Assembly (NCBI GenBank): GCA_963828845.1
Contig: CAWHGE010000017.1
Location: forward strand, 8,981 to 72,980
Direction of reading: 5' to 3'
Source: an uncultured Chloroflexia bacterium
GTDB lineage: Bacteria; Chloroflexota; Anaerolineae; Anaerolineales; UBA4823
DNA length: 64,000 nucleotides
Below the pieces are notes generated by a model. That model did no database searches and was not told where the DNA came from. It saw nothing but the letters and a program-made list of their open reading frames with translations. The position numbers and the translations under genes were made by a program. Positions 4,015-30,754 of the stretch are shown one piece after another (the first letter of the stretch is position 1; every line of letters begins with the position of its first letter).

Positions 4015-6144
4015 TTATGGTCCGATATAGCTTGTCCGTGTGGAGGTAAAACCATCGAAATATTCCGCCCCGGATGTACCCGAAGGGACAGTTTGTGGTC
4101 CTAAAAGCACATCTTCAAGCCGGTATCCACCATTGGCAATACCATTGCGGGTTTCCTTGAGCGATCCATCCAGCCATAAGCTGAGCAGACCATCCGTACC
4201 TTTAGCTAGTTGAGGCTGCTTGCCAGGCTATCTCTATTGCATGAGCAGAATTACTCATTGTATACCAGCTGGTGGTCAGTGTTTTTCCATTACCATTCAA
4301 GGATCATGCCACGTACCTGGTAACTACCGGATGCATACTGGAGCTGCAATCGGAAAATCACCACACCTGCGGATGTACGCCCGATGAAGAGGTCCTGAAG
4401 TTTCTTTCTTGGAAGGGCGACACCGTTGGGTGAGAAGTAAAAACGAGCATGATAAGGTGGCTTCAGCAGCAGGTGATGTATCTATGACGTAGATGGATTT
4501 GGTGCTGTTTACCAAAGCTTGCATGCCTTGTGTACCAATCATAGCAGCCTGTCCTGATACACTCAGCCGGCTCCCATCTGTAACGGCTGAAGACCAATGG
4601 CTAAGATCCCCTGATTCAAACCCGTCAGAGAAAATCGTATCTGGCCACAGGAGTAGACGTCGGTGAAGGAGCTGGTGTAGGAGTTGGTGAAGGAGCCGGT
4701 GTGGGAGTTGGCACAGGTGTTGCTGTCGCTGTAGGTAAAGGAGTTGGGGTCACACGGTTGCCAGCAGCCAGCCAATTATATGCTGCCAGAGCATCAAGCA
4801 TGCCATAACCAAAGTCATTATCCGGACCAGTTGAACCCAAGATCAACGGCTGTATTCATCAGAGCTGCAGCTTGTGATTCGGTGGAGAGTTCCGGAAAAG
4901 CGCTGATCAGCAATGCCAGCACACCAGAAACATGCGGAGCTGACATGGATGTACCACTGTGCTTGGGTGTACAAGCCATATAAATCTGTCGTGGTGATGT
5001 TCGCACCTGGGGCAACCAATTCAGGATAGATGCTTGATGATTCACCACAAGCGGAAGGTCCGCGACTGCTATAGGTCTGCAATGCACCAGAATTATCCAC
5101 TGCACCGACCGCGAAAGCTTCGGGATAATTGGCCGGGCTGACACTGGTGGAGGAATTCGGACCATAATTTCCTGCGGCAAACACTGGCAGGATACCCACC
5201 AGACGCAAGGACTTCAGGTCATTCTGGAATTCCAGGTTGCAACCGGGGCTGCCATACGACCATGAGTTGTTGACCACCTGTGGTGCATCGGCCGTGGCGG
5301 GGTTGCCGTCAGGGTCGAGCAACCACTGGAATCCCAGGTGGATTGCCAGTGGCAGTGGCTGTGCCACTATCATTGAAGATCTTCACCGCAATCCACTGGG
5401 CCTGTGGAGCCACTCCAAGTGTGGTTCCAGAGCCATCAGCAGCGACCATCACACCCATGGTCCAGGTACCATGACCGTTCAAATCGGTGGGTGTGGTGGG
5501 GTGTTGGTTGTACGGGTCATACCAGCTGTCACTGCCACCCCGCCAGCGAGCGCTTAGCTCAGGGTGACTGAGATCAACACCGGTATCCATATTGGCGACC
5601 ACAACACCCTGACCGTAATAACCAAGGTCCCACAATGCTGGGGCATTGATGGCTGAAAGATTACCCGCTGGTGCGGCCAGGTTCATCGTCCCAACAGGCA
5701 TGATGTCGGTTGTATCTGGCGTGATGCTTACCACATCCCCTCGGGTGGCAAGGGCCTGGATCACGTCTGCATGTCGCAGTGACTGACAATCCGTTGAAAA
5801 CCCAAAAAGGTATCACCCTGGCAACGCGACCTTGGGCTTGAGTCAGCTTCCAAGACTGACAGAGATCGCCTGCTGTGAGGTTCGAGCGAGGGCTTGTAGA
5901 GCTTCGATCACCACTTGCTGCCGATTTGGCAAGTTCTGCAGAATGCTGGTATCAGGGCGATATTGGTCTTTGAGGGTGACAATGACGGTAACCATTTGAC
6001 CTGGTTGCGAGTTGGCTAATTGAGCTTGCACTTCGGGGGCAATTTTGGCTGATGGATCGCTTGCTGCGCTTCTGGCAGCCTTTGCAATCCCAAATATGCT
6101 CAATGCAAGAACCAAAATAATAATGCCGGGTAATGTTTTTTCAT
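4015..6144 (-). CDS. Secreted S8 (subtilisin/bacillopeptidase F-like) serine peptidase with Pro/Thr linker and C-terminal beta domain; frameshifted
   Basis: Signal peptide, prodomain, catalytic NMDTG, HGTWTMG, GTSMSAPHVSG across fragments; PTPTP linker; ends YFDGFTSTRTSYIGP*. Confidence 0.85.
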
Positions 6145-6195: not shown

Positions 6196-7048
6196 TTATC
6201 TGACAATAACAGGTTCTACACGCTCACGACCAAAGACAAGGCTGACTTCAGATCCAGCGTGAATCACCTGCTGGGTTGGGAAAAATATGATGAATACCTT
6301 TCCGGCTTTTAACCTGTTTCCATTGTGCGAATGCATATGGGGTGCCAGCACAAGAGATTGTTGATTGACAAGTAAAGCGGCCTGGTTTTGAAGAAGCATA
6401 TGTGCTTTTTCGGGATCAATAATTTTTAACCGCACATCCACAATGCTGTTCATCATGGATGTGGCCACCAGTGATACCTGCACACCATATTGCTCTTCTA
6501 ATTCAGAAAATGATGTTACGGGCGTATCGATCACCTGGTCCAGTGAACCAACATGATATCCAAATGCCTGTGTTACACGCGGTATCCCATCGATAGGTAA
6601 AGGCACTGATTAGCACAAGGATAAGCAAGCCAGTTACCGGCTGGATATAGCGAAGTGGCTGTTGAGCAGTAGCCGGGAGCAATTCACCAGTCAGGAGATT
6701 TTCCACGGGCGCAGGATAAATAGCAGGATGAAAAAGCCTTCCACCGCCATCGCTACAATCCCATAAGGCGTAAACCATTCCTCTACTTCCATGCCCGGCA
6801 TACCCTTGGTCCTGCTCCAGGCATAACCGGCTATCGAGCCAATGGCGATGAACAAACCGAGCATCCACCCCCAGAGCTGCTTGCGATAAATACCATAGGC
6901 GGCAAGCAATGCGCCGACGAAGTTTCCCACGAAGAGATAACCCATATATGCGGCTTCCTCAAATTCGCCTTGGGCGGTCATCAGGTGAAGCAGCCCGATT
7001 TCGAGGATGAGGACGATTGCAAACCATTGAAGTGAATTTAGATTTCAT
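6196..7048 (-). CDS. Membrane protein with C-terminal soluble domain containing HMHSH; frameshifted
   Basis: Fragments 6691-6981, 6503-6868 and 6196-6606 join; several TM helices; C-domain paralogous to 7087-7584. Confidence 0.65.
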
Positions 7049-7086
7049 TTTTATTTCTCCGTATATCAATAATAACTCTCATGGTA

Positions 7087-7584
7087 TTACCTGGCATTGA
7101 TTGGCTCAACCGCGATATTGCCAAACAAAATCGTCACTGGTGTATCATGTTTGATTGCATTACCGGAGTTCGGATAAATGATGAAAAGATTACCCCCGGA
7201 GATGAACTGGATTTCCTGTGATTTTGTATCTTCGGGAGCGCTCAAAACAACTCCCTGCTCAGTATACAAAGTTGGGAAATTTGTTCTTATCAGCTAACAG
7301 CAGTTTCAATTTCTCACCATCCACAATTTTCAAGCGGACATCCACGAAACCACCTGCAGCAGTCACAGCGATAAGATTCACACGCAGACCATATTTTTCT
7401 TCCAGCGTGCCTTGCGAGATTACGACTGTTCCATTCGGAAGGGATGCAGCTTGAAATGCCCTGGATCGCATTGTTTACATATATGGCCGACACAATATAA
7501 GATCGATAGAATAATACCGATGGAAATAAATCTACTGGTTGATTTTTGTGGCACCAGGGTGTGGTTGGCTTTTATCGCTTGCAT
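7087..7584 (-). CDS. Membrane-anchored hypothetical protein; frameshifted
   Basis: N-terminal TM then LEEKYGLRVNLIAVTAAGGFVDVRLKIVD...VTILFGNIAVEPINAR; RBS aggag. Confidence 0.65.
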
Positions 7585-7663
7585 GATTTGTTTTCTCCTG
7601 ATTTTGGGAAGCCGTAGTCTCAGTAGATACAAGGACCTTCCACAATAAACCTGATAATTGCTT

Positions 7664-7701
7664 ATGGCTGGAGGCTCCAATGAATTGAGACCTCCAGCCA
7701 T
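7664..7701 (-). terminator. Stem-loop after third cupredoxin gene
   Basis: atggctggagg...cctccagccat inverted repeat. Confidence 0.55.
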
Positions 7702-7717
7702 TTGACTTAGTTATTGA

Positions 7718-10435
7718 TTATGGAATATCAAATGCATCGATATCCAGGTTGTTGCTGGTTAATCCATGTGCAGTACCATCGAAGTAAACGATCCAGGTAC
7801 CGTTGTTGTAGAACACAACATCCTCGTCCTGAACTGTTCCAAGACCTGGCACATGTTGTATCAGTAGCAAACGAGAGGTAGAAGTGAGTGGTATCAACCC
7901 AAACCAATCCATCCACATTCGCTCCACTGGGGAGAGAATACGGAGATGCAGAGGCATCCACTACACGGGTATAGGAGCTACCACCATTCCAGCGGTAGAT
8001 ATCTGCATCATCGCCTGTACCACCAGCACCGGGGGGGTACATTACCATGTCTGTCGAGAAGTAAATGTGCCTCCGACAATACTGAATGCGTCGAGATCAA
8101 AGCTGGTTGCGTTGTCGAGACCAGGACGCTGTCCATCAAAGAACAGCTGACCAGGTACCCGCGTTGTAGTAGACAATATCTTCATCCTGCGACTGTACCG
8201 AAGCCCGGTAAAGTTGTGTCACCACTGAAGGACATGTAGAAGTGGGTAGCGTCAACCCGATCAAAACCATCCACGTTGGCATTACTGCATGGAATACCGA
8301 TGCGTAGATGGCATCCACCACACGACTGTAGGCTGTTCCGTTCCACAGGTAGATATCTGCATCATCTGCAGTTCCACCCACACCTGGAGGATTGGAATTT
8401 CCAAGCGGTCGAGAAGTACAGCGACTTGGTGATCACCAGGATCGTTGTGCTCATCGCACCCCAATTGCCTGCGGCATCCTTGGCATGGACATAGATGGTA
8501 TGGTTGCCATTGCTGAGGGCACCGATCACCGCCAGCGGGATATCTCCATAGCCTGATTCAGTCGGGCTGTTGAAGCTACCATCTGTAGCAATGAACACGA
8601 AGCCCGTGCCGGTTGTGCCAATCGTATCGAGGAAACCTTCAGCTGCGGCAATGTTGGAGCCACCAGTGGCTACATCACTGAAGTCGGCTGTCACACGCAC
8701 CGCCTGGTACACTGGTGTTGAAGCCTTGACTGCCATTGTTCGGATTGGGCGAAGCAGCGACGTTACTGGTGGTTGGAGCAGCAGTATCTGTCACCTGCAG
8801 GGTAATCGTTGCGACTGCACCCCAATTTCCAAACGCATCCTGGCTGCGCACCGAAACGACATGCGAACCCATGCTCAAACCAGCCGGGATCGTAGCCGTA
8901 AAGCTTCTTACAGATGAATCGGAACCAGCGACGATGTCATGGCGGTATGAGGCACCACCATCCACCCAGTATTCCGCCGCAGTGACGATTACTGTTGCCA
9001 GAGGCGGTGTCATTGCCGGTTGCAGTCAAGGCTACACTCACAGCCCCACTGCTTGGGTTCGGCGTAAGACTCAAACCGGATGTTGATCGGACCAGTCTTA
9101 TCCAGATTGAGCGTGATGGGACGGAAGGCTCCCCAATTCCCGAGAGATATCCTGACCGCGTACATAGATCGTGTGATTTCCAGAGGACAAGGTCTCCGAG
9201 TGTAGCCGCTGGGATCGTACCTGTAACAGATTCTGCAGTTGAGTCAAATGACCGCATCCACTGCGGTCATCGCAGTTGGCATGTTGGCAGTGCTATCGAT
9301 ATAGAACTCTGCTGCGAGTTACAGTTGGAACCACCTGTTGATCCATCAGCTGATGGTAGCATTGACGGTAACATCCACTGAACCGTTGGTCGGGTTCGGT
9401 GATAGGCTTATCGCTGTAACCGTTGGACCGGTGATCTACGGGAGGTGGCGGTGGTAGTTGCGCTCACAGTGAGAAAGGAAAGCATGCCGCCAAAGCTTGC
9501 TTGCCGTGTTATTGCGCAACAGCATATTGGCATCGTATACAGCGAACTTGCTTCCCACAGCGGCCGAGGCAGGGATGGTGACGATGGTATCCAGGGTCTG
9601 CCCGGTGGCGATCGTTTCTGCAACCACCTTGTGTGAGTAGAGATAGGGGCTGCCATCCTGCCCAATGATGGTCTGGGAAAGACCCAGGGTGCTCATGGCA
9701 TGCGCCTGTATACCTGCATTGACATAGCGCAGCAGCACTTTACCACCTGCAGACTACCGTCAAAGGATCCGTGCCAGGATAAGCCTTGCCATTGATCAGG
9801 AAGTACTTCGGGTTGAAATTGCGCATATCGAAGGAGGCCGGAGTGGCGACTGTGTTGAGCGCGGTATCGAGTTCGCTGAGCACCATAACAGTCTTCCTTC
9901 GGCAAAGTGCAGTTGAAGCATCATCATATGCCTAGCCCACGGCTGCAGTTGGGCGAACGATCAAGGCGCCATATAACCCCATGGCCACCTGATGCTGACC
10001 ATTGGGAGTCAGACCTGCTTCGTAGAGGAATGTCCCGGGGCTGCTGGCAGTGAAAGTATAGATTGTACTAGCACCAGCTGCCACACCGGTTGTATCCGGG
10101 ATCATTGCCTGACCCTGGAAGAGCAAGGACGTGGCTTCGGGAAGATCAGTTGTGTAAGGTCACCTGTACACAATCCCCCTCAGTGACATCCAATACAGGA
10201 CCAGGTAGACCAGCGGGATCGGTATCCAGGGCATGAATAGCCCCATATGGTCACTGAGGTCGTGCCATAACAGGGTGGCTGTTCCCGTCTTAGCCCATAA
10301 GTCAATATTGAAGACATGTAGGCGTGCAGGTGGCGGCGTAGGCCACTGATGATTTGAAACCAGCGCCAAACATCGCCATCAGCACTGACAAGTGCCATAC
10401 ATTATTTTAAGTGTATTACGTGTTATTGTTTGCAT
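7718..10435 (-). CDS. Secreted two-domain cupredoxin (MCO-like) protein lacking Cu ligands, with Ig-like repeats and C-terminal DADIY/QDED repeats; frameshifted
   Basis: TSLLFQGQ, PGTFLYEAG..QVAMGLYGALIVRP, YFLINGK, LLRYVNAG; three PNP..AAE..GNWG repeats; two GGT.DDADIY.WNG repeats. Confidence 0.8.
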
Positions 10436-10452
10436 GTTAGTCTCCTTAGCCC

Positions 10453-11752
10453 TTACGGACAAGTGTTGGGCTGAGGTGGATCAATCCTCAGGTAAGTGAT
10501 GGGACCAGACATGGTCTGACCAAAGGCATCCAGCTGGAAGAGGGCATGGTTGTGCGAGATGATGTAGTACTCGCCGCACTGGTTGAGCGTGCTGATGCCA
10601 GGCGGCATGGTTTGCATCTGACCCAAATATGGACTGCCACTGTAGAACATGCCGATGGTCACGTTTACCAGGTCTGGAACGGTGACTGGAACCGGATTTG
10701 ACTGGGCTATAACTCTCCGCGTCATACCATTTGAAGAGCACATCCCAGGTCTGGCCCGGACCGATGTTGACAGCGAATTTCTCGAACGATAGATCTTGAC
10801 CACCAGGACCTTCCAGCGGATATCCATCACGGCCGATCACCAATCCATTTTGCCCGTGGGGGTGGAATGGATATTCCTCCGAACCCACATTGATAAAGCG
10901 TTCCACGGCGGGGTATGGATGGGTGGCTAGCATCGTATGGATAGATGCGTGCCAGAGCGCCATAAGGTTGAGCAGGCAGCCAGGGAGCATAGTTATCGGC
11001 GATGCTATCTGGGAAACCGCGCCCATTGATCAGCCAGTAGCGGGCACGATAGTTGTTCAAGTTATAAGTTACTACCCTGAGTGAGTCCCACTTCCCAGGC
11101 TGCATGCTGGTAAGGGTCAACTTCAGAAAGCAGGGCCAGGAACTCCTCAGTGGGAGTGAATTGGCTGTCTGCCCGGTTATAAACGTAGTCAGCACCCGAG
11201 GCAGGTCGTACGATCAATGCTCCGAACAAACCCATGGGTACTTGTGTTTTGGTATCTGTCCCGCTCTCGTAGATGAACGTGCCGGGTCGTGGAGGCGATG
11301 AAACTATAGGTGACACTGCCACCCGATGGCTGCACTTTTGGTGAGCGAGGTGAGATTCCCACCTCCGATCAAACTCCGGCTGGGCGGGAGCACCATCTGC
11401 CAGGACATCTCTCCTGCCCGGGGAAGATGATCGAAGTGGAGAGACCATAGGGCAGGGAATTTTGTAGAGTAACCGTTACCGTGTCCCCTTCATTGACGCA
11501 CAATACGGGACCTGGATGCTGGAAGCCTGCCGGCTCCATAACTCCACATATACATGGTATTCATGTCTGGCATTTGGATGTAACCCGATTGAGCCGTCAA
11601 GGAAGAAGGCTCGGCTCCAGTAGGTGCAGACGATGCCCGTAGCTGGGTTTGCAGCTTTTGCGGATTGAACTGGTGCCAGTGGGCTCAATGCCAGCAAGCC
11701 CATCACGAGCACCATTACCAACCGCATCCATTTGAATTTTGATAGTATGCAT
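10453..11752 (-). CDS. Secreted two-domain cupredoxin (MCO-like) protein with domain-2 His ligands; frameshifted
   Basis: Signal peptide; SIIFPGQ, PGTFIYESG..MGLFGALIVRP, YWLINGRGFPD, PFHPHG, SHNH. Confidence 0.8.
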
Positions 11753-11770
11753 TTTATATACTCCTTTTGG

Positions 11771-13160
11771 CTATTCCCCGCTAGACCAATTATGTCGTCG
11801 GGGTGCTGGTTTATGTACTGCTGGGCGGGCTAGAGTTCCTGCGGGATATACACGCACTTCGGTGCGCTGCCCTGCTCCCCCGCCTGCAGTCAGGTTGCTG
11901 TCCTGGGTGTAGCGCCGGTTGTACAGGATGTACTTGTCGTAGCTACGTCCTTGTTCATCAATAGCAGTGCCACCGCTAAAAGTTGGGGCTTCAATGATGA
12001 CATCATAGCTTTCACCAGCACCGATCAGGATCGTGTCGGTCATGTAGCTGGTATCGGTGCCGTCGCGGCCCCTCATGTAGAGTGGCATCACGCCCGACCA
12101 CCTTCATCTTGATACCTGCCAGGGTCATCGCCTCTTCGCGGAAGCCAAGGTTGGCAAAACGCAGCAAGACTCTTTCACCTTCATTGCAAGTGACCAGGGA
12201 AGAGTGTGGGTTATATTGCAAATGCTCGTAGTCCCGGATTGGCCACCAGGTCACCATTGCCATCCGTCTGTATGGTCAATGCATGGGTGGAGGCCGCCAG
12301 GTTGATCGGTGAGTTGGGAAGCAGCGTATCGGGATAGACCCGCCCATTGAGCATGCTGAAATCCGCTTTGAACTGACTCCAATCGGATTCCTGGATGTGG
12401 GCATCGTTCCAGTGACCTTCAGCCCAGATTTCGCTCAGGAACAGGGCGTTCTCTCGATCATAACCGGTTGATCCGTCACCATCGTTGTAGGCATACTTGC
12501 CACTTGGATACAACGATGTGTCGCCATTCTGTAACGGGTCGAACAAACACCAGGCTGGTCATGCCCATGGTCACATGTTCCACATCTTCCACGTGGCAGT
12601 GATACATGTAGGTACCAGGATCATGCGGGCGGAAAACATAGGTAAAGAGCTGTCCGACTGGCACAGCGACTGAACCGGTTGGTTCGCCATCAAAGAACGG
12701 GATCACATTGCGGAAGCCATGCCAGTGTAGGGTGTGGGCATCGGTCAGATCAGGGCGTTGTGCCAGACCCAGGTTGGTGAGCTGAACCTTGAGCTCCTGC
12801 TCTTGATCCACCCAAAAGAAGGGTGCATTGTGCTGCGCTTTATTCTTCTGGTTTGCACGCTGGACATCATCCAGGCCGGTAACATTGCGAAAGCCGAAGA
12901 TATACGTGGTAAATGGTGCAGGTGCATATGTATCAGGATGCCATGGCGGGATGGCTGGATCAGGTGGCATATAGAACCATCCATCCGTTCCGGCAAAGAA
13001 TAGATCATAATTACCAGCAGCGCCAACCACCTGTTCTGGCAGCAAGGTCTTGCGCAGGAATTGAGGCATTACACTTGCCCCGGCAACAATGAAGGCTGCG
13101 CCGCCTGCCAGTTTGAGAAAATCACGCCGGTTGATCGATTGCGAGAAGTTGTTTATTCAT
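11771..13160 (-). CDS. Tat-exported two-domain multicopper oxidase-like protein with type-1 Cu site; frameshifted
   Basis: NRRDFLK Tat motif; HTLHWHG and YMYHCHVEDVEHVTMGM. Confidence 0.88.
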
Positions 13161-13230: not shown

Positions 13231-16200
13231 TTAAGGCACTCGTCGGCGCCGATGTCAAAGCCTGCCGCCGATGACGGTCGGGATTGGTTATCGATATCGA
13301 AGAGCGGGTGCGGTTACGCCATTCTTAGCGTTGGCTGCTTGCCGGTAAGTTCACATGGCTGGTGACCCGCTACCACTCAGGTGGTAATCACCCAACCAGG
13401 TAGGGCGGCAGGTCCACCGTCACCATGATGGCACCGATGAAGTTGATATTGGTGCGCCAGGAGGTGAAGCTCAGAGGGATATCAAGTGTAGCCAATCACC
13501 AGAGGATCAGCCAGCTGTTGGATGCACTCCGAGATGACTCCGGGATGCGCACTCGGCTGAAGGACCGAGTTGGTTGGTGACAGCAGGTTGCTTGATGCTA
13601 CCCACCACGCCCATATCCCAGTAGGATCGGTAAGCATCACCTGCGGCGTGATTCCGGTCACCGTATTGGTGCCGCTTGGTACCAGCCCAGTTATCCCAGA
13701 AGATATCGTTGAACAGCAAGGGATTGCTGAAGAACGGGGAACCACCAGGCAAGGTGGACTTGCAGCTGGTCGCTATTTGCACCGGTCGAAAGACCAGCCG
13801 GGGCAGGCAAACCATCGCTGGTAATGGCGGTTGCAGTGGTCTTGTTATTCATGACCGTGTTGTTATAGAAGCGCACATCGGGAGCATCGTCGAGGGCGAC
13901 ACCGCCGCCTTCGTGCATGGAGACGTTGTTGACGATCATGTTGTTGTACACGTTCATGGGGAAGTTGCCCGCCATGAGGAAGCGTAGACCACCACCGTCG
14001 TCTTCAGCCATGTTGGCCTGGATCAGGTTGTTGTAGATATCCACCGGCACCTGAACCTTGCGGTCCACCGGGCTGACCATAGCTCGCAGTGGGATCGGTA
14101 GCCAATTCACCGGCGATGATGATGCCAGCACCTTCATCGTACGAGTGGTTGTAGTAGATGCGGTTATCGTGGATCTTGCCATTGGGGCTGATAGCCGAAG
14201 TGGCTGATGGCACCACCGTATTCAGCTGAGAAGTTACCGCACAGGTCGTTGCTGGCGATCTCGTATCCATCAGCGCCATTGAAGAGACCGATGGCACCTG
14301 CCAGGTTGGTACCACCGTTGGCAAAGATGCGGTTGTTGGCGATGCGCAGGTTCTCGTTATGCTGGTTGGTATCCGGACCAGTCAGGTTGGGTGTACCGAT
14401 GCGGATGGTGCCGTACGAGCCGCCGTTGCTGTCGATCAGGTTGTTGGTGATCTGCAGGTTGCGCGCGTAGGCGTTGGCAAAGATGGCCCCGCCCTGGGTG
14501 ACTACCTGGACTGCCTGGAGAGGTCCGGGGAAACCGCCAAAGATGGCATTGAGGTTGCCCGGAAGTCCCTGCTGGTCGCCACCGCGGATTTCAAAGCCGT
14601 CGATGGAGGCCTTGAAGATTGAACCGAACTGGCGGGCCTGGTTGGGTCCGGTGGTCTGGTTCTGCAGAGGCCAGCACGTAGATCACCTGGCCATCGTTGA
14701 TATCCTGGGAACCATCCCAGGTCAGGCTGCTGATTTTTGTCAGCCAATCCGTCGCCAGGTGTGGTATCACCACCAAAGGCGATGCCATCGATGATCGAGC
14801 CTTGGACGGGTGTGCCATCCGGATACACGCCACCAGGTCCAACGCCTTGCAGCTTGACCGGCGAGTACATGATCAGGTTCTCGTAGTACGCACCGCGTCC
14901 GTTATAGCGTGGGTTGCTGTGATCTACTGCGCCGGGTAGACTACTACCAGCGAGTCTTGACCGGGGAGTGAGGCGGCTGCATCGAGTGCACTCTGGATGG
15001 TGGTGATAAGCATGGCCTGGACCGACTTCGTATACGGTCGGGTTGTAAATGCTGCAGGGCATTTCCACCACCGAAGTTGTCGAAGCGGGCATCGTTCGCT
15101 ACTGAGAAGTTCCAACGAACCGGACGCCGATGCTGCCGCCAGCTTGTGCCAGAGACGATAGGCCAGTAGGGTGTCGGTCCAGTGGTCGTCACATTGACGC
15201 TGCCGATCAGGACTGCCGTTTTTATATACATCGACAGTTCCATCTGCAGAAGCGATCGCACCGAGCTGATCATCCTAGCAGCTAAAGGTCACGGGGAAGG
15301 TGGCTCGCAGTGCTGCGCTGTTGGAATTCTGGCCGCGTCACTTTCGTGCGAACCGCGACAGCGTTGGTTACCATTGTAGGCAACCTCGATCCACGAGGCG
15401 CCGTTGCTGTTCGGGTCTGCCTCCGCTGAACTTGAGCAGCAAGCCTTGCTCAGTCCCGCTTGAGCTCACCTTGGTAAAGGTGAAGTAGGCTTCCTGGTCA
15501 GCGCCGAACGAGGTTCGGGAGCCCACCAGGCATTGCCGGTGCTGCGTACTTGAACGACACCATCGGGGTTGATGCTCGGGAAGTGCTGGATACGGAAGGT
15601 ACCCTGGGTGTTGCCGTCGCCGCCCCAGTTGCTACCCAACCCACCATTGGCACGATTGAAATTGTCCAGTACACTGGTCTGTGGGAAGGTGCCGCTGCAA
15701 GCACGTGGAAAGTCAGGCCATTGACTGTGCTCTTGCCGTTGGCAGCTGTGATCTTGAGCTGGTGCGGACCTGGCACGGTTCCAGCCGGTACGGTTACGTC
15801 AATATGAGTAGCGCTCCAGCTGGTTGTTGGTAGTGCAACACCATCCAAGGTCACCTGACCTGGTGTAGGTCCCAAAGCCCTGACCATCGATGGTAAACGA
15901 ACCTGAGCCGTTCACATAAGGTTGCGAAACTGCAAATAGCTCGGGGGTTATCCCTGCACCATTTGGAGTCACCCAGTAGTGCGGCTGGATCGTTCAGCGT
16001 GCAGACAGCTGGCTTGACTCGTCTGCAAACCCGGGATCTGAACAGCTACGGCCACTGGCGTAGGCGCCAGGTCAGCCGGGAGGGTCAGGCCAGGGAAGGC
16101 TTCGAACTCAGCCGAGATGGTGCGGTATTGAGGGTTGTAGTTCGCATTCCAACGACCCGGAGTACCGGGATCGTTGCCAACGAAGCGATACAGGTTGGCA

Positions 16201-19200
16201 CATACACCGGAAGGTGTTGGACAGCTGATGCGGTTGGTGGAAGGCAGAAGCACATCCCACAGACCGTTGTAATCTGATTCGACTGTGTAGATCAACCGGT
16301 TGGTGTAATCATAGATACCGACCGGAGCGAAAGATACAGGCAACTTCTCGCCATAAGCGATCGATTTGGGGTTGCTGGAGAAGTTGAGATCATCCACGAT
16401 CAAACCCCAGAAGCGGCCTGGAAGCGGAACATCGGTGAACAGGTTGAAACCCGGGGCGATCGACTTGCGATCACTGAGACGGACCAGTTTCATATCGCAT
16501 AGAGGCTTCTGCTTGTCCTTCGTATATCGATCCGCCAATATCAACGAAGGTGGGATTATCGGTGGGTGTAGAAGCGGGAACGGTAACACCAACGGGCAAT
16601 GACCGTTGACTATCGTAACCAGCTCCGACAACTGCTGGATAATTGTCTGTATCCGCTACCTGCGACATCCACCGTATGTAATGGACCAGCACAAGGCGGA
16701 GGTGGAACCTGCGGGACGAACGAATCGCCATTGGCGATGTTGATATCTTCTTCACGGGTCACTTTGTATAATGCGGCATTCGGGTGGACAGCCGCAGCGC
16801 CATATACATCTGCCTCGGTTGGGATTTCGACTTTGACCAGATAATCCCGGTTGGAAGGTAAGGATAGGAAATCGCCAGTTGAACAAGTCTCCAGATGTCG
16901 GATCAAACGCACCGGGAGTGCCATCAGCCAGGAAACAACCATCGCCGAAGCCATAGTTGCCATCCACGCTGGCACCGAAGTTCGGTGCCATCAGACATGG
17001 GACCAAACTGCACACCCATCATGGGGGCTTCCAGGCAGGGTTGGCATTTCCGGGTGTATCTGAACCGAGTGGCAACACCTGCTCATCTACTCCATTGAAC
17101 CAACGGATTGCCGTCCACATTGCGGGCAACACAACCGGTGGGTCGTTCCCAGGTTTCTGAGACATACTGGTTCAACAATGGACCCAGGGCATAGGAACCA
17201 TCTGGATTCAGCTGCATAAATTCCATTCGCATCGCACGGTGCGTCGGGTTACGTCCATCATAGGGGCAAGCTACCGGAGCATACAGGTCGACCGTCAAGC
17301 CCGAAATGCTGGGCTGCCAGTCTTCAATGGCTGCATAAGCAGGATTCAGCTCATTGCGGGTGGTATCGTAACTGATGGTGCCTACGATGCCGCCGTTCGT
17401 TCCAGGAGCATAGGCTTTCACGCCCCAATCCAGGCGACCGCCCAGGCCAATGACCGGATGAACGTTCACATCCACACCCTGGCCGAGTATCGTGGTTTCT
17501 TCGGGCTGGTTATCCGCCTGGTAGGTGATACCGGTGGTCTGGAAGCCATCAGCATAGGCTTCTTCCACCAGCCATTGGGTGATTGGGTAGGCATTTTCCA
17601 TCCAGTAATAACCGTTTGCATCGGTGGTCACCAGGGTTGCGCCGCGGTCCATGATGGAATTCTCACGCGTGCGCATCACAATGGGGAAGTTAGGAATGCC
17701 CGGCTCACCGGCATCCATCTTGCCGTTTTCATTGAGATCATTGAAAACGTGACCTTCGATGGTGGTCCACCAACCTAGCATGGATAATGAACCCAGGTCA
17801 ACAATCTCACCATTTCGAACAGAGACGTTCTGTTCAAGGAAGATATAATCCTGGGGCTCATCCCAAACTCCGAGAACATAATCTCCATCCGGAACATTCG
17901 GGATAGTGAAGTTAACCGGTGGACAACCGGCAGCTTCGTTACAATCGAACTCTCCCATATAAACAGTCTGATCGTTATTGTTGAGATCAGATAAGGAGAC
18001 GAATAAGCGGTGGATTGGATTTACATCCTTGGGTTTTGCACCCAGCAGACCGGCTTCACCGCCGATACCGCCTACGGGAGGGATATAGGCACTCACAGCC
18101 AGTGCAGTACCTTTGATCGTCGCCACTGCCTGGCTGCCATGGTATTCGTGGGTTGGACAAAACCGAAGAAGGTGGCGGGGAAGGGTTCACCTGCCACGAC
18201 GAATTCGGTATCCAGACCAGTGGCACCTTCCATCACCCAGGCATCCCAGTCATGGTTGCCTTCCAGGGTGGTGGTCTGAGCCCAATCGGTGCCCGTCGGG
18301 TCTGACAACGGATAAGGCATAGCGGTTGGGACCAAGGTGCGGGATGATTAATTTGCCCTCAATCACTGCACGTAGCAGAAACTGGTAAGGTTCCGTATCA
18401 GTTGTAGTTGCATCGGCAGGAAGATCATCGCGGAATGGGCAATCGGCCATCGGCATCATCGATGGGTGCGACGATACCGAGATCGACACCACCATCAACC
18501 ACGTAACATTGGCTTACGCAATGAGCCATCACCGCAAACGGGATCGCCATATACATCCGTTGTGACTTCATCAATGTAATCCGCGATGTGGCCTTCAAAA
18601 CCAGCCAAACCGCGTTCAGCGGGTACATCCGGGGCACTATTGGTGGGAGCAACATCTTCAAAAACTTCCGCCTGAATGGTTGCGTCTGGAAGATCATAGG
18701 GCTGCATTTCTACGGTGACATATGGCCAGTTCGCGATCAGCCATGGTACAGTGAAATGTGCACCATCGATCTTGTAATTATCAGCCAGCACCGAGATCAG
18801 ATAACGCCCATCGGGTAGAGTAATACCAGGACCGAAGTCGGTCTCGATCACCCTGAGTGTAGATCGGGCTGGAGCTGGCTACACCGGCAATTGAAACCCA
18901 ATTGCATGAGCCAGGGTAACCAGCATCCTGTGGTGAACATCCAGTGCCAGGTTCAGGACTTCTTTGCTCGGTGGTACCAGTGTTATCCACATTGATGATG
19001 TATTTGAATTGAGTAATTGGATCGCCTTTTGATATCCCATAGGTAGCGCTATCATTCGCGCTGATTACCTTCAATATGAAGGGTATTTGTTTGCCGCTTT
19101 GGCGGGGGTTGCTGTTAAAGAGTTAAGTGGCCCGAGAGCTGTAACAAGCATCACCAGGGTCACCAAAAGCCGGAATAGATTAAAACCTTTATTCGATTTG

Positions 19201-19218
19201 TGAATTCTTACCTTTCAT
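13231..19218 (-). CDS. Giant (~2000 aa) secreted multidomain protein: SdrD-B-like, IPT/TIG, right-handed beta-helix, choice-of-anchor-Q-like tail; heavily frameshifted
   Basis: Signal-like N-terminus; GHVFNDLNENGKMDAGEPGI; GQVTLDGVALPTTSWSATHIDVTVP; TIQSALDAA; NNMIVNNVS/GGG repeats; ends GFDIGADE; no internal RBS/gap seen. Confidence 0.7.
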
Positions 19219-19543: not shown

Positions 19544-20196
19544 CTATTTGATTAAACCTGCTTGTTGGGCATATAGGATCGCTGCTCGTGCGGTTCTTCA
19601 GCCTTAACTTGGCCAGAATATTATGTATATGATGTTTAACTGTGTTCACGGATAGAAAATAGTTTGGTCGCGATTTCCCCATTCGACGCACCCAGGGCTA
19701 TCTCCCGTAAAATTTCAATCTCACGCTGACTGAGAACACTCTGTGTATTGCAAACCTCACTGGAGACTCCATTATATGGTGCTGTGAGAATTCCTCCAGG
19801 AGACGCATGGTCATTGATCCCGAGATGGCTGCTTCACCTTTTTCGATTGATTTTAACGAGCTCACCAATTTCGCTCACCGGCACATTCTTTAACAGATAT
19901 CCCTTGGCACCACTCCGGATGGCTGCAATCAACTTATCATCCGCGTCATACATGGTCAGGAAGACAATCTTACATCCGGGTTGCTCTGCTAAGATAGCTG
20001 CAGAAGCTTCAGCACCATCACCATCCGGCAAGCTGAAATCCATCAGGATTAATTCGGGTCGGAGTTTACTGGCTAAATATATTGCTTCATGAACCGATCC
20101 GGCCTGACCGACAACATTAAAATATTTATCTGCTTTGAGTAAACTGACCAAACCTTCACGAAATAACACATGATCATCAACGACGAGTACTTTCAC
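19544..20196 (-). CDS. NarL/LuxR-family response regulator; frameshifted
   Basis: VLVVDDH, ILMD, GYLLK receiver; LSVNTVKHHIHNILAKL HTH. Confidence 0.9.
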
Positions 20197-20220
20197 ACTT
20201 CACCTCTCTTATAAAACTCT

Positions 20221-21620
20221 TCACTCATCAGACGCAATTAATGGCAAGCAGGAGCATGACTTCTGTACCCTGCCCTGGGGTGCTGTTGATTTCTGCATTT
20301 TCCTCCAAGAGATTGAATCCGTTCATCAATAATGTGAAGTCCATAATGACCATCATAGCGCAGTTTCATCTGAGCTAAAACCCCGTCCATCATCCCAAAT
20401 ATTCACCTTAAGGTGTGTATCCGTCCAGGATAAGTGTACCTTTGCGTGGCTGGCACCAGAATGTTTTTCGATATTGTACAGAGACTCTTTAAACGCGTAA
20501 AGGAGCTGTTTTAAATGGTTTGGTGGTATGGAACGTGGCAGACCTTCTTCATCGATATTTACGGAAATCCCGGCACGTTTGGCAATAATTTGCGTGTGTG
20601 CTTTGAATAGTTCATTGATCTGATGGTCACTTCCATGATGCAGGATGACCAGGGTATTCCTCACCAGTTCGTATGATTCATTGGCAAGCTCGCGCAGATG
20701 TTCGAGCTCATTTTTCAATGTGCGCAATGAATACTTCTCACCTGCAGTTAGTATCTGATCAAGTTTGAGATGCAAATATCCCAGATTCTGACCTAGTGTA
20801 TCATGCAGGTCACGGGCGATTTCCAAGCGTTCGTTACTGGCTGCTTGGCAACTTCTATGGCGTGCTGTTCTTGTCTTTGGTTAGCTGCACTCAAACCAAT
20901 GGCAATATCATCTGCGGTATTACTTAACAGTTGAGCATGTTCATTTGTTAAATACTTGTGTTTCGGCAGGATCATATAAAGCATCCCTATTGGCAGATCC
21001 CCATAATTAATAGAGATGTGATAACACTGCCGCTTTCCATCTCTATCTTCGCTAATTTTGTCGCAATCAACCAGGTGGACATTGGGAGCGATAGTGACTG
21101 ATATCATCTGTACAACAGGCATCTCTGGATATGGTTTTGACTTGGATTTCAATATTCTCAGATGGAGCTATCCAGCTCTGCTTCTGTGACGAAATTATCA
21201 TTATCCTGGTCAAAGATCAGTAGCGATGTTGCTGACACCGGTAATATGGAGGATGGATATTGGAGTACCCTGGTTACAACATCCTCCCAATTTTTCGCAG
21301 AAATCAATTGCATGCTGAGGTTATGCCGGGCATCCAATATCATGATGGTCTGATTCTTGGCAATCACTGCTTTGATGGCCAGCTTCAACCATTACTGCTG
21401 TGACGGCGATTAATGTATAGTACATCGCAATTTCTTTAAAAAAATATAAACTATTGTCGGTAAGAAAGTCAGGATGCTCAATAATTTCGAATATACCCAA
21501 GAAGATTGTGGTCAAATAGCAAAATAACGATCCGCCAACGAATGAGAAAATTCTGTATCTTCCCAACAAGAGGGCGAAATTCATTAATCCTGGAGCGTGA
21601 CGAAAGTACCATTTCCTCAC
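20221..21620 (-). CDS. NarX-like HisKA_3 sensor histidine kinase with TM and GAF-like region; frameshifted
   Basis: EIARDLHDTLGQ, ESLYNIEKHS, DDGRGF. Confidence 0.85.
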
Positions 21621-28587: not shown

Positions 28588-29251
28588 TTATTCGCGGCGG
28601 ACGATCCCTTCCTGCCAGGCATAGGCTGCCGCCTGGGTGCGGTCGACCAGGTGCAATTTGCTGAGAATGTTGCTGACATGCCCCTTGACAGTACCCACAC
28701 TGATGACCAGTTGTTCGGCGATCTTGTCATTTGAATAACCTTTGGCGATCAGCTTGAGCACTTCCATCTCGCGTTCAGTCAGCGCAATGAAGGGAGTTGC
28801 CTCTTCAGGCTCCAGGCTGCGGAATGTTTTGATGACGCGTGCGGCGATCCTTGGATGAAGGGTGGCTTCCCCCCGGGCAGCACGACGGATGGCTTCGACA
28901 AGCTCTGAGGCTTTCACATCTTTGAGCAGGTACGAGATCGCACCGGCTTGAAGGGCAGGAAAGATAAATTCGTCTTGATGGAAAGAAGTCAGGATGACGA
29001 TCTGGGTGCGCGGGCTGATGTCTCTTGACCCTGCGTGTGGCTTCAACGCCATCCATGCCAGGCATCACCAGGTCCATCAAAACCACATCAGGGATGAATT
29101 CCTGAGCCAACTTGACGGCCTCTTCACCTGACCCTGCTTGAGCAACCACAGAGATATCAGGTTGGGCTTCCAGGTAACTGCAAGCACCACGACGAACCAT
29201 TTCATGGTCATCAACGATCATTACGGTGATAGCATCCGTTGGATCAGCCAT
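28588..29251 (-). CDS. NarL/LiaR-like response regulator; one frameshift
   Basis: IVDDHEMVR, VLMDLVMPGMDG, LTEREMEVL, TVKGHVSNILSKL. Confidence 0.92.
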
Positions 29252-29263
29252 AGTGCCTCCTTA

Positions 29264-30754
29264 TCAAACCATGCGCGGTAAAGTTACTATGATTTTGGTG
29301 CCCTGCTCTGGCGAGCTTTCAACTGTAAAACTCCCGCCTAATACTTCGGCGCGTTCTTGCATCGAGTAAAGGCCTAACCCACCATGTTGAACACTCTTGT
29401 CAAAGCCGTGGCCATCATCTTTGATGATCATTGTAACCATCTTTGTCTCATATTCCAGGGATACATCTGCACGACTGGCAGAACTATGACGGGCAATGTT
29501 TGCCAGGGCTTCCTGGGCGATCCGGAACAGGGCTTCCCGGGTCTCTAACGACAATTCGTCGTTTCCCTCAATATTAATATTCAACTCAATCCCACTTCGA
29601 TGAGACCAATCCACGGCGTACTCTTTGAGGGTTTCGGAAAAATCCTGTCCGTCCATGGACTGGGGGCGCAGCTCGTGGACCAAATTGGTGAGCTCATTGC
29701 GAACCGAATCAACCAGTGCATCGGCTTCCACCAGATGTTTTTTTGCGATTTGTGGATCGCGGTCGTATAACGTGAGGGCAGTGCCCAATTGAAAGGAAGC
29801 CGCCAGAGCCTGTTGCTTGGCACTGTCGTGCAGGTCACGCGCCAGCCGGTTACGCTCTTCAGAGACTGCCATTTCTTGTCGTCTGCGAAGCAGATCCTGT
29901 AATTGTTTGGCCATATTGTTCAAACGCTGTGAAAATTGCGAAATCTCATCTCCGGTGGTGTCATCAATAAACTTTGAGAAATCACCTTCACTCCAGGCAT
30001 CGATGGTGGTAGATAATCGCTTGAAGCGTGTGGACAGCCCATGGGCAAAAAAGGCACCGAAGATGGCTCCCATGATCCCAGTACCAAGCAGAAAGATCAA
30101 CAGGCTTCTGCCGGCAATATTCAGGATGTGCGAAGGAATATCCGCCTGGGTGGGAAGATTATCGATAAATACCACAACAACCCCCACAACCCGGTTTTCG
30201 CTCACGGGACGTAGTCGAAAATCGGAAGTGCCAATACATATCGTTTATTCGGTTCAAATATGGTGTACAAATGGCTCGTATCTGTGTCACCCGCCAGTGC
30301 GGCATTAAAGGGTGCCTCCAAACCCTGTACCTGAGCGAGGTCGAATGGTTGCCCGATTACAAAACTGGTGGGGAAACTATATTCGGTCTTTCCTAATAAT
30401 GTTCCATCCGTTCCAATAATTAAAGCGCGCACTGAGCCATTGTCCTCACAGTGAACTGTACAGAACCAATGCGAAGAAAATCGAAACTTGTGATCGTCGA
30501 TATCAGATTCTTTCAAGAGCAAAGCAATTAATTGCTGTATCCACCGGAGATTGAGAAAGTACATGACTAAACAAGGGACCAGTGTTTTTCTGTAATATCT
30601 CAATCAGTACTTCGGGACTGAAAATATTGGTTTGCACAAATATCCGGGGTAAAACAATCCCTACCAGGATCAGGATAACTACCAAAAAAGCACTCACCGT
30701 CACGATGGTGTAGTTGAAGGTCAATTTCCAGCGAAGTTTACGAAAGATGTTCAT
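29264..30754 (-). CDS. HAMP/HisKA_3 sensor kinase (LiaS-like); frameshifted
   Basis: Two TM, HAMP, EERNRLARDLHDS, EALANIARHS, DDGHGF, GLGL. Confidence 0.9.

Follow-up and report, generated by a model that had tools for sequence, protein, structure and literature searches.

Copper ligands divided between two genes of a conserved three-gene cupredoxin cluster: a candidate heterotrimeric multicopper oxidase

Introduction

Two-domain multicopper oxidases (MCOs) are trimers in which neighboring chains bind the trinuclear copper cluster jointly, one through its domain 1 and the next through its domain 2 (PMC13151041; PMC11761707). In the literature that we consulted these enzymes are homotrimers, and the step from them to the six-domain enzymes with a single cluster is a hypothesis drawn from fused proteins. 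Here we analyze a locus in a stretch of 64,000 nucleotides from an uncultured Chloroflexia bacterium (assembly GCA_963828845.1, contig CAWHGE010000017.1, positions 8,981 to 72,980; hereafter the window). Three adjacent genes on its minus strand encode cupredoxin proteins, namely A (11771..13160), B (10453..11752) and C (7718..10435), and an earlier reading of the sequence (the original prediction) had proposed that their products rebuild one oxidase center together. The trimer architecture on which that proposal leaned is borne out by the literature (PMC13151041).

Our analyses revealed that the copper ligands of one oxidase are divided between A and B, that this division is invariant in two distant clades, that the genes keep the fixed order D-A-B-C, where D is a giant gene for a secreted protein, that A, B and C share a common descent, and that natural fusions join members of the set. 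From these sequence data we estimate a probability of about two in three that the products form an obligate, secreted A:B:C ring, with one type 1 (T1) copper and one trinuclear center at the interface between domain 1 of A and domain 2 of B. Given that the cluster of two-domain oxidases forms between domain 1 and domain 2 of different chains, only this contact could build it here.

Results

The copper ligands are divided between A and B

All 11 motifs quoted in the original prediction are present on the minus strand at their places. In domain 1 of A, HTLHWHG (12716..12736) supplies the T1 His, the type 2 (T2) His and a type 3 (T3) His; it is followed by the conserved Asp of DGEP (12680-12691) and by HCHVEDVEHVTMGM (12560..12601), which holds a T3 His, the T1 Cys, a second T3 His, the T1 His and the axial Met. 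Domain 2 of A is ligand-free at EEAMTLAG (12114-12137) and ILYNRR (11912-11929). Gene B is the reverse: its domain 1 is empty at SIIFPGQ (11414-11434) and IYESG (11260-11274), while its domain 2 contributes a T2 and a T3 His in PFHPHG (10853..10870) and two T3 His in SHNH (10546..10557), with Asn at the Cys position. Gene C lacks both sets (SLLFQGQ, 10109-10129; LYEAG, 10013-10027; HAMSTLG, 9682-9702), as predicted, except that the His of HAMSTLG occupies, by alignment, the position of a T1 relic and not a cluster position.

All three window genes are frameshifted, and this genome's own copy may not be intact, so the ligand gaps could in principle be a frameshift artefact, or A, B and C decaying paralogs of one oxidase gene. 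Relative to an intact locus of the same genus (L011), frame-breaking indels (not multiples of three) number 10 in A, 14 in B and 47 in C. Since D and the protease and kinase genes of the window are broken likewise, and since stop-free stretches of at least 300 amino acids cover only 41% of the whole genome (G000), the frameshifts look like assembly error rather than gene-specific decay, and apparent pseudogenes or frameshift features elsewhere in this genome should be distrusted. Indels against the window appeared at a few places in three DNA sequencing runs from relatives, although no piece of these runs spans the stretch; among the sequencing runs listed, none from RNA contained it. Because the window is so rich in indels, the analysis was carried out on intact orthologs. 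These show the same ligand pattern as the frameshifted genes, in close relatives and in many phyla, and the split is thus not a product of the window frameshifts. With a split that predates both clades, and with indels striking neighboring genes equally, an artefact or gene decay is refuted for the family and is extremely unlikely as the explanation of the pattern.

The first ligand survey drew on species-representative genomes and covered the best 80 of the 352 relatives in them; the second took the best 80 of 509 metagenome matches, which form a distant clade with about 35% identity to A. In the first clade, the seven His and Cys ligand positions of A domain 1, those of HTLHWHG included, are kept in 77/77 full-length A proteins and the four domain-2 His of B in 72/72 full-length B proteins, and the C cores (n = 68) contain no invariant His at all. 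In the second clade, domain 1 of A is complete in 80/80, and both B motifs occur in all 52 loci with room on the contig. The proposed division, a filled domain 1 and an empty domain 2 in A against the opposite in B, without Cys, therefore holds in both clades. The HxH motifs of B, whose conservation had been left as a check, are also invariant in a further count (57/57). The axial Met of A (M152) is invariant in 65 alignment rows, as are the acidic residues E143, D144 and E146 of the T1 loop.

When the proteins were aligned to an unsplit type C two-domain oxidase, each of the four cluster motifs was found to be kept by exactly one of A and B. A reads YNRR and YTTN, without His, at both cluster motifs of domain 2; C lacks the three motifs that could be aligned to the unsplit enzyme, and in an alignment of C proteins the region of the fourth motif is free of His. 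Neither B nor C carries a T1 Cys, and among the best 150 B relatives in a library clustered at 50% identity, 149 lack the T1 HCH motif, the single exception being an A-to-B read-through. The T1 His-Cys-His(-Met) site of an MCO is thus present in A domain 1, and the eight T2 and T3 His in four HxH motifs are present in sequence only across A and B jointly. Of the three, only A has the T1 site in its N-terminal domain as in a type C MCO, and no single gene product holds all cluster ligands. Traces of the missing ligands persist as partial His relics in domain 1 of B and of C, and in the second clade one HxH lies somewhere beyond T1 in 4/80 A and 5/40 C proteins.

A further conserved motif, HWNDAHIQ in A domain 2 (12391..12414), with its His kept in 75/77 and 77/77 proteins, is a candidate substrate or metal site. 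Other conserved residues that are not copper ligands include an A QH and a lone Cys in A (76/77), at window positions 12821-12835 and 12177-12197, and the Cys of NQCGEY in B (10564-10584; 72/72). These residues could represent a substrate site and disulfides, possibly inter-chain.

A complete T1 site, a weak similarity to nitrite reductases and, in the first clade, a twin-arginine (Tat) signal on A only would fit a different reading, in which A alone acts as a homotrimeric NirK-like reductase or a blue-copper electron carrier, with B and C as separate copper-binding or structural proteins. NirK requires a third T2 His from the neighboring chain. In A, however, domain 2 has no His at the cluster motifs, so a neighboring A chain cannot provide one, and the NirK family model TIGR02376 scores only 26-32 bits on A against a cut-off of 296; these two observations exclude NirK. 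Moreover, the motifs of A are of the oxidase type (HxxHxHG and HCH) and all invariant, and the four His of B are invariant exactly where A has none. We therefore regard a function of A on its own as very improbable. The Tat signal of A lies at window positions 13112-13129, and B, C and D look Sec-type in the first clade; in Burkholderiales, A lacks a twin-arginine motif. Possibly the subunits come together only once they have been exported.

The three genes travel together

The original prediction had named frequent A homologs without B as the finding that would speak against it, and A was not seen without B wherever the contig had room. In the first clade, B follows A in 79/80 loci, the one miss ending at a contig edge, and in the second clade in all 52 loci with room. 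C follows in 76/80 first-clade loci and D precedes in 76/80, all misses lying near contig ends. In the second clade, a script placed C after B in 40/41 loci; the remaining locus (L175), whose third gene had been called B by a score threshold, has no B motifs there, and that gene is C. The suggested survey of co-occurrence gave the same picture: among 300 genomes sampled from the phylum, nine have a full A, and the same nine hold the top B and C matches; B follows A in all nine, and C is on another contig in one of them. Two genomes with weaker A matches in this sample (G209, G265) were considered as carriers of lone A genes and rejected, as both matches are unsplit type C oxidases.

The hosts include Chloroflexota, Actinomycetota, Anaeromyxobacteraceae, a deltaproteobacterium, Burkholderiales and Methylobacter, and the named loci nearest to the window are from Chloroflexota.

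A, B and C descend from one oxidase gene

By sequence, A matches two type C oxidases best among the PDB entries, 2ZWN (E 1.7e-12) and 3G5W (E 7.4e-12). AlphaFold2 models of the A and B orthologs of locus L036 are two-domain cupredoxins, with a predicted local distance difference test score (pLDDT) of 82 and a predicted template modeling score (pTM) of 0.87 for A, and 78 and 0.81 for B, and the closest folds to both by TM-score are again 3G5W and 2ZWN. Each chain thus has two cupredoxin domains, those of C being assigned by profile only. The monomer model of B has low confidence around both His motifs, which fits a missing partner but equally a shallow alignment, and was not counted as evidence.

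We built a careful tree from 36 of 87 rows with the ligand columns removed, type B oxidases as the outgroup and the LG+G4 model. It recovers an A+B+C clade (96/91) and within it a B+C subclade (97/95), with support of 81/86 for B; the sister group comprises an unsplit type C pair (L182, L183) and the protein L186. In a larger quick-search tree A, B and C are supported at 100, 91 and 97, and with ligand columns kept this tree grouped A weakly (80) with unsplit type C. The sequences therefore place A, B and C as descendants of one type C two-domain oxidase gene, and because each of the three divides into the same two clades, the ligand split is older than both. The unsplit oxidases at L182:3-1163 and L183:58-1320 are the nearest intact relatives found and would serve well as controls for the ancestral state.

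L186 (8113-10377, genome G153) is a single chain, in which domain 1 carries T1 and four His, domains 2 and 3 are empty and domain 4 carries four His; an additional cupredoxin domain follows at the C-terminus, and the gene beside it (6599-8026) is also cupredoxin-like. In the careful tree the two halves of L186 form a group, and by this phylogeny L186 is an independent complementary split, the same solution having arisen twice.

Gene D and natural fusions

Upstream of A, gene D (13231..19218, minus strand) encodes a giant secreted protein with SdrD-B and immunoglobulin (Ig)-like domains, an IPT/TIG domain, a right-handed beta-helix and a choice-of-anchor Q domain; an atlas search with D returned generic beta-helix clusters only. 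We considered D as a donor of cluster ligands and dropped the idea, because almost no His is conserved across both clades (one column).

A carries D as an N-terminal fusion in 4/80 loci. Profiles show the same fusion in 41 of 45 long A matches, a count that leaves out one artefact and includes two fusions inspected in full. D is fused behind C in 2/80 loci, and a C-D fusion is present in all three Burkholderiales loci (Cupriavidus metallidurans CH34, Paraburkholderia and Ralstonia sp. RRA.1). B and C are fused in P0047 and P0048, which have a common, natural-looking linker. Six further candidates, P0001 (D-A), P0043, P0111 and P0130 (A-B), and P0078 and P0080 (B-C), were rejected as frameshift read-throughs on account of their out-of-frame linkers. 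No A-B-C fusion was found among the 45 long A or 150 B matches in a word-limited search, and no chain with six cupredoxin domains was seen. Since the fusions link A with D, and C with both D and B, they provide indirect evidence for one complex. Some second-clade loci (L106, L109, L154) have two tandem D genes upstream of A, and in P0116 two C-like cupredoxin pairs without ligands stand in tandem, with a C-terminal repeat that we take to be dockerin-like.

Organization of the locus and its neighbors

The gene bounds in the window agree with L011, where the kinase, regulator, D, A, B, C, E, F and S8 protease genes follow one another on one strand. The spacers in the D-A-B-C run measure 17-69 bp, and the protein lengths are 1978 (D), 457 (A), 429 (B) and 966 (C) amino acids. 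In the window, A begins with the Tat signal and B with a signal-peptide-like N-terminus; the two cupredoxin domains of C span about 9450-10330 and are followed downstream by Ig-like domains and C-terminal repeats, as identified with Pfam. Genes E and F, the protease gene and the two-component pair next to D also lie on the minus strand. Gene E (7087..7584) encodes a small exported or membrane-anchored protein without a Pfam family, which matched only unnamed clusters in an atlas search, and gene F (6196..7048) a membrane protein that ends in an E-like domain with the His-rich stretch PHMHSHNG. A secreted subtilisin (S8) protease follows (4015..6144). A two-component pair (19544..21612; histidine kinase 20193-21612, response regulator 19544-20196) upstream of D corresponds to the pair at the same place in L011, and a second, similar pair lies at about 28600-29950. 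Promoter and terminator scans gave results at chance level.

The original prediction was right about the makeup of A, B and C and overlooked D, the small protein E and the SCO or CopC chaperones. Among 74 loci of at least 19 kb, an E homolog is found in 73, an S8 protease homolog in 67, SCO or CopC in 42 and a cytochrome c protein in 14. SCO and CopC each occur in 28 of 163 loci and never together, which suggests interchangeable copper-loading modules, a pattern partly confounded by lineage. Type II secretion genes adjoin eight loci.

The CopC and CopD genes in 28 first-clade loci, together with the presence of the operon in the metal-resistant C. metallidurans CH34, could point to a complex that serves copper resistance, as do CueO and CopA, by oxidizing Cu(I) or trapping copper in the periplasm or at the surface. 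The CopA and CueO family scores, however, are far below the cut-offs, and the proteins here have two domains against the three of those monomers. A partner of about 2000 residues, moreover, is not known from Cu(I) oxidases. Under acute copper, the CH34 genes Rmet_4702, Rmet_4701 and Rmet_4700 and the SCO gene changed by log2 fold changes of -0.53, -0.42, +0.16 and -0.81 at a false discovery rate of 1.0 (PMC7563307, Table S3). This lack of induction, behind which low expression could conceal a response, weakens a role in copper resistance, and we consider such a role highly unlikely.

In CH34 the operon (L098:14550-30388; Rmet_4702-4695) lies on the chromid, directly downstream of a type II secretion cluster, and comprises A, B, the C-D fusion, E, two LolA-like proteins, a cytochrome c protein and SCO. 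A hypervariable region was described in Rmet_4700 of one laboratory line (PMC13192273). In the literature found, Rmet_4700 figures only as an uncharacterized variable gene, and the CH34 genome paper does not contain the word 'multicopper'. In the Paraburkholderia record, A, B, C and D are all annotated as hypothetical.

Discussion

A possible mechanism, and what weighs against it

In the A:B:C ring that we favor, C would take the third position of the ancestral homotrimer, with domain 2 of B meeting domain 1 of A, domain 2 of A meeting domain 1 of C, and domain 2 of C meeting domain 1 of B. The substrate would hand electrons singly to the T1 copper of A (two His, Cys and Met), from where they would run through the Cys-His pair to the trinuclear cluster common to A and B, and O2 would be reduced to water there. 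An axial Met suggests a moderate potential. C would contribute its Ig and repeat domains, D may display or tether the enzyme at the cell surface, and SCO or CopC/D, perhaps also E and F, would load the copper.

Several observations weigh against this arrangement. Inter-chain covariation, computed as mutual information with average product correction over 111 loci (effective number of sequences, 83), was depleted for domain 2 of A with domain 1 of C (33 observed against 77 expected in the top 1000 pairs) and enriched between the second domains of A and B; the measure was noisy, however, and even the top intra-chain pairs were unlike contacts, so that it speaks neither for nor against the ring. 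The monophyly of C is weak in the careful tree (68/54), and no clean A-B fusion was found, those seen being frameshift read-throughs. L186 shows the A+B pattern in one four-domain chain without a third unit, so a third subunit may be dispensable. Finally, surveys of the best 80 of 352 and of 509 matches could miss lone, distant A homologs, and many of the surveyed loci are kin, so that the counts are not independent trials.

These points bear most directly on the possibility that A and B alone constitute the active oxidase, as a heterodimer or as A2B and AB2 rings, with C as a co-inherited surface or scaffold protein outside the ring. L186, with no C-like neighbor seen, is a natural example of such a chain, conservation among the three paralogs is lowest in C (mean column identity 44%, compared with 58-59%), and the covariation between A and C that a ring predicts is missing. 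Against this, C is present after B in every locus with room and retains both cupredoxin domains, it groups with B in the tree (97/95), and it is fused to B in P0047 and P0048 and to D in Burkholderiales. An oxidase made of A and B alone is thus rather unlikely, and we retain the A:B:C ring as the preferred arrangement.

Candidate substrates and wider meaning

Because of the invariant acids in the T1 loop, the extra His of A and a gene context like that of the Pseudomonas Mn-oxidase clusters, a reduced metal, for example Mn(II) or Fe(II), is our tentative first choice of substrate. SCO genes, however, accompany many copper enzymes and thus do not identify the substrate. Phenolics or matrix cross-linking rank behind a reduced metal as a less probable choice, and other small inorganic compounds or plain O2 removal, also ranked behind it, are a guess. 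In Pseudomonas, the mnxG and mcoA clusters lie in a context of SCO, type II secretion, cytochrome c and two-component genes (PMC13689576).

We found no ligand-split MCO in the literature searched, which misses most subscription journals; the system itself is genuine and conserved, and seems to have escaped description in the literature that can be searched. It is possible, if doubtful, that it represents the first obligately heterotrimeric MCO, derived from a homotrimer gene that was triplicated once with its ligands divided, and the head of a widespread secreted surface machine that oxidizes Mn(II) or Fe(II). The parts of such a machine would be D as a beta-helix stalk, E as a chaperone, SCO or CopC, cytochrome c and, in diderms, type II secretion. 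If so, the operon would be an unrecognized marker of metal oxidation in Chloroflexota, Actinomycetota and Proteobacteria, and the six-domain oxidases would have in it a living counterpart that is not fused. A natural three-gene version makes the duplicate-and-degenerate step testable subunit by subunit, and a tractable host, C. metallidurans CH34, already carries the operon (Rmet_4702-4700). Each gene alone resembles a broken oxidase or a hypothetical protein, and motif-based oxidase surveys would therefore drop a system with at least 352 relatives, a blind spot of such surveys. An asymmetric ring with a single site would also permit the engineering of T1 and the O2-reducing cluster on separate chains.

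Comparison with known systems

Like the proposed split enzyme, NirK is a two-domain cupredoxin trimer that has its T1 copper in domain 1 and a further copper site at the interface between chains. The T2 site of NirK is mononuclear, whereas A and B together give eight His for a trinuclear cluster, and the family score of A is far below the cut-off. The closest relatives are the type C two-domain MCOs, exemplified by the metagenomic mgLAC (2ZWN) and the blue copper oxidase of Nitrosomonas europaea (3G5W), which also have two cupredoxin domains with T1 in domain 1, HxxHxHG and HCHxxxxEHxxxxM as in A, and the domain-2 HxH motifs as in B. Those enzymes, however, are homotrimers with the eight His in one chain, while here the His are split over two genes and a third is empty, so that a ring would have one center, and D and E accompany the split genes.

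Different chains are also combined in known heteromeric MCOs, such as fungal POXA3 and NLAC with their small subunit, Bacillus MnxG-MnxE3F3 and the alpha-alpha-alpha' trimer of Nmar_1354 (9CCK) (PMC10443355). In these the catalytic chain has all ligands, and the partners are accessory or a shortened product of the same gene; none of them shares out the copper ligands over paralogous genes. Pseudomonas putida MnxG and McoA are large exported MCOs accompanied by SCO1/SenC, type II secretion and two-component regulator genes, and possibly linked to a cytochrome (PMC13689576), and neighbors of these kinds are found in the second clade of the split system. MnxG and McoA are single chains, however, and the likeness is one of gene context.

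The six-domain MCOs, namely ceruloplasmin, hephaestin, algal Fox1 and Bacillus MnxG, have at most one trinuclear cluster after ligand loss (PMC3600357), and by ligand count A, B and C likewise hold one trinuclear site per six domains. To this extent the analogy with ceruloplasmin drawn in the original prediction stands. It fails for the parity of the T1 domain, which is odd here, while ceruloplasmin has its T1 sites in domains 2, 4 and 6 (PMC3600357); the six-domain enzymes are single chains with T1 in even domains, against three genes here. With a ring order of B-A-C, the cluster would fall between domains 2 and 3, where Fox1 and the bacterial six-domain enzymes have theirs. To conclude, the split system arose in parallel, from a type C ancestor, and is not a direct precursor of the six-domain enzymes.

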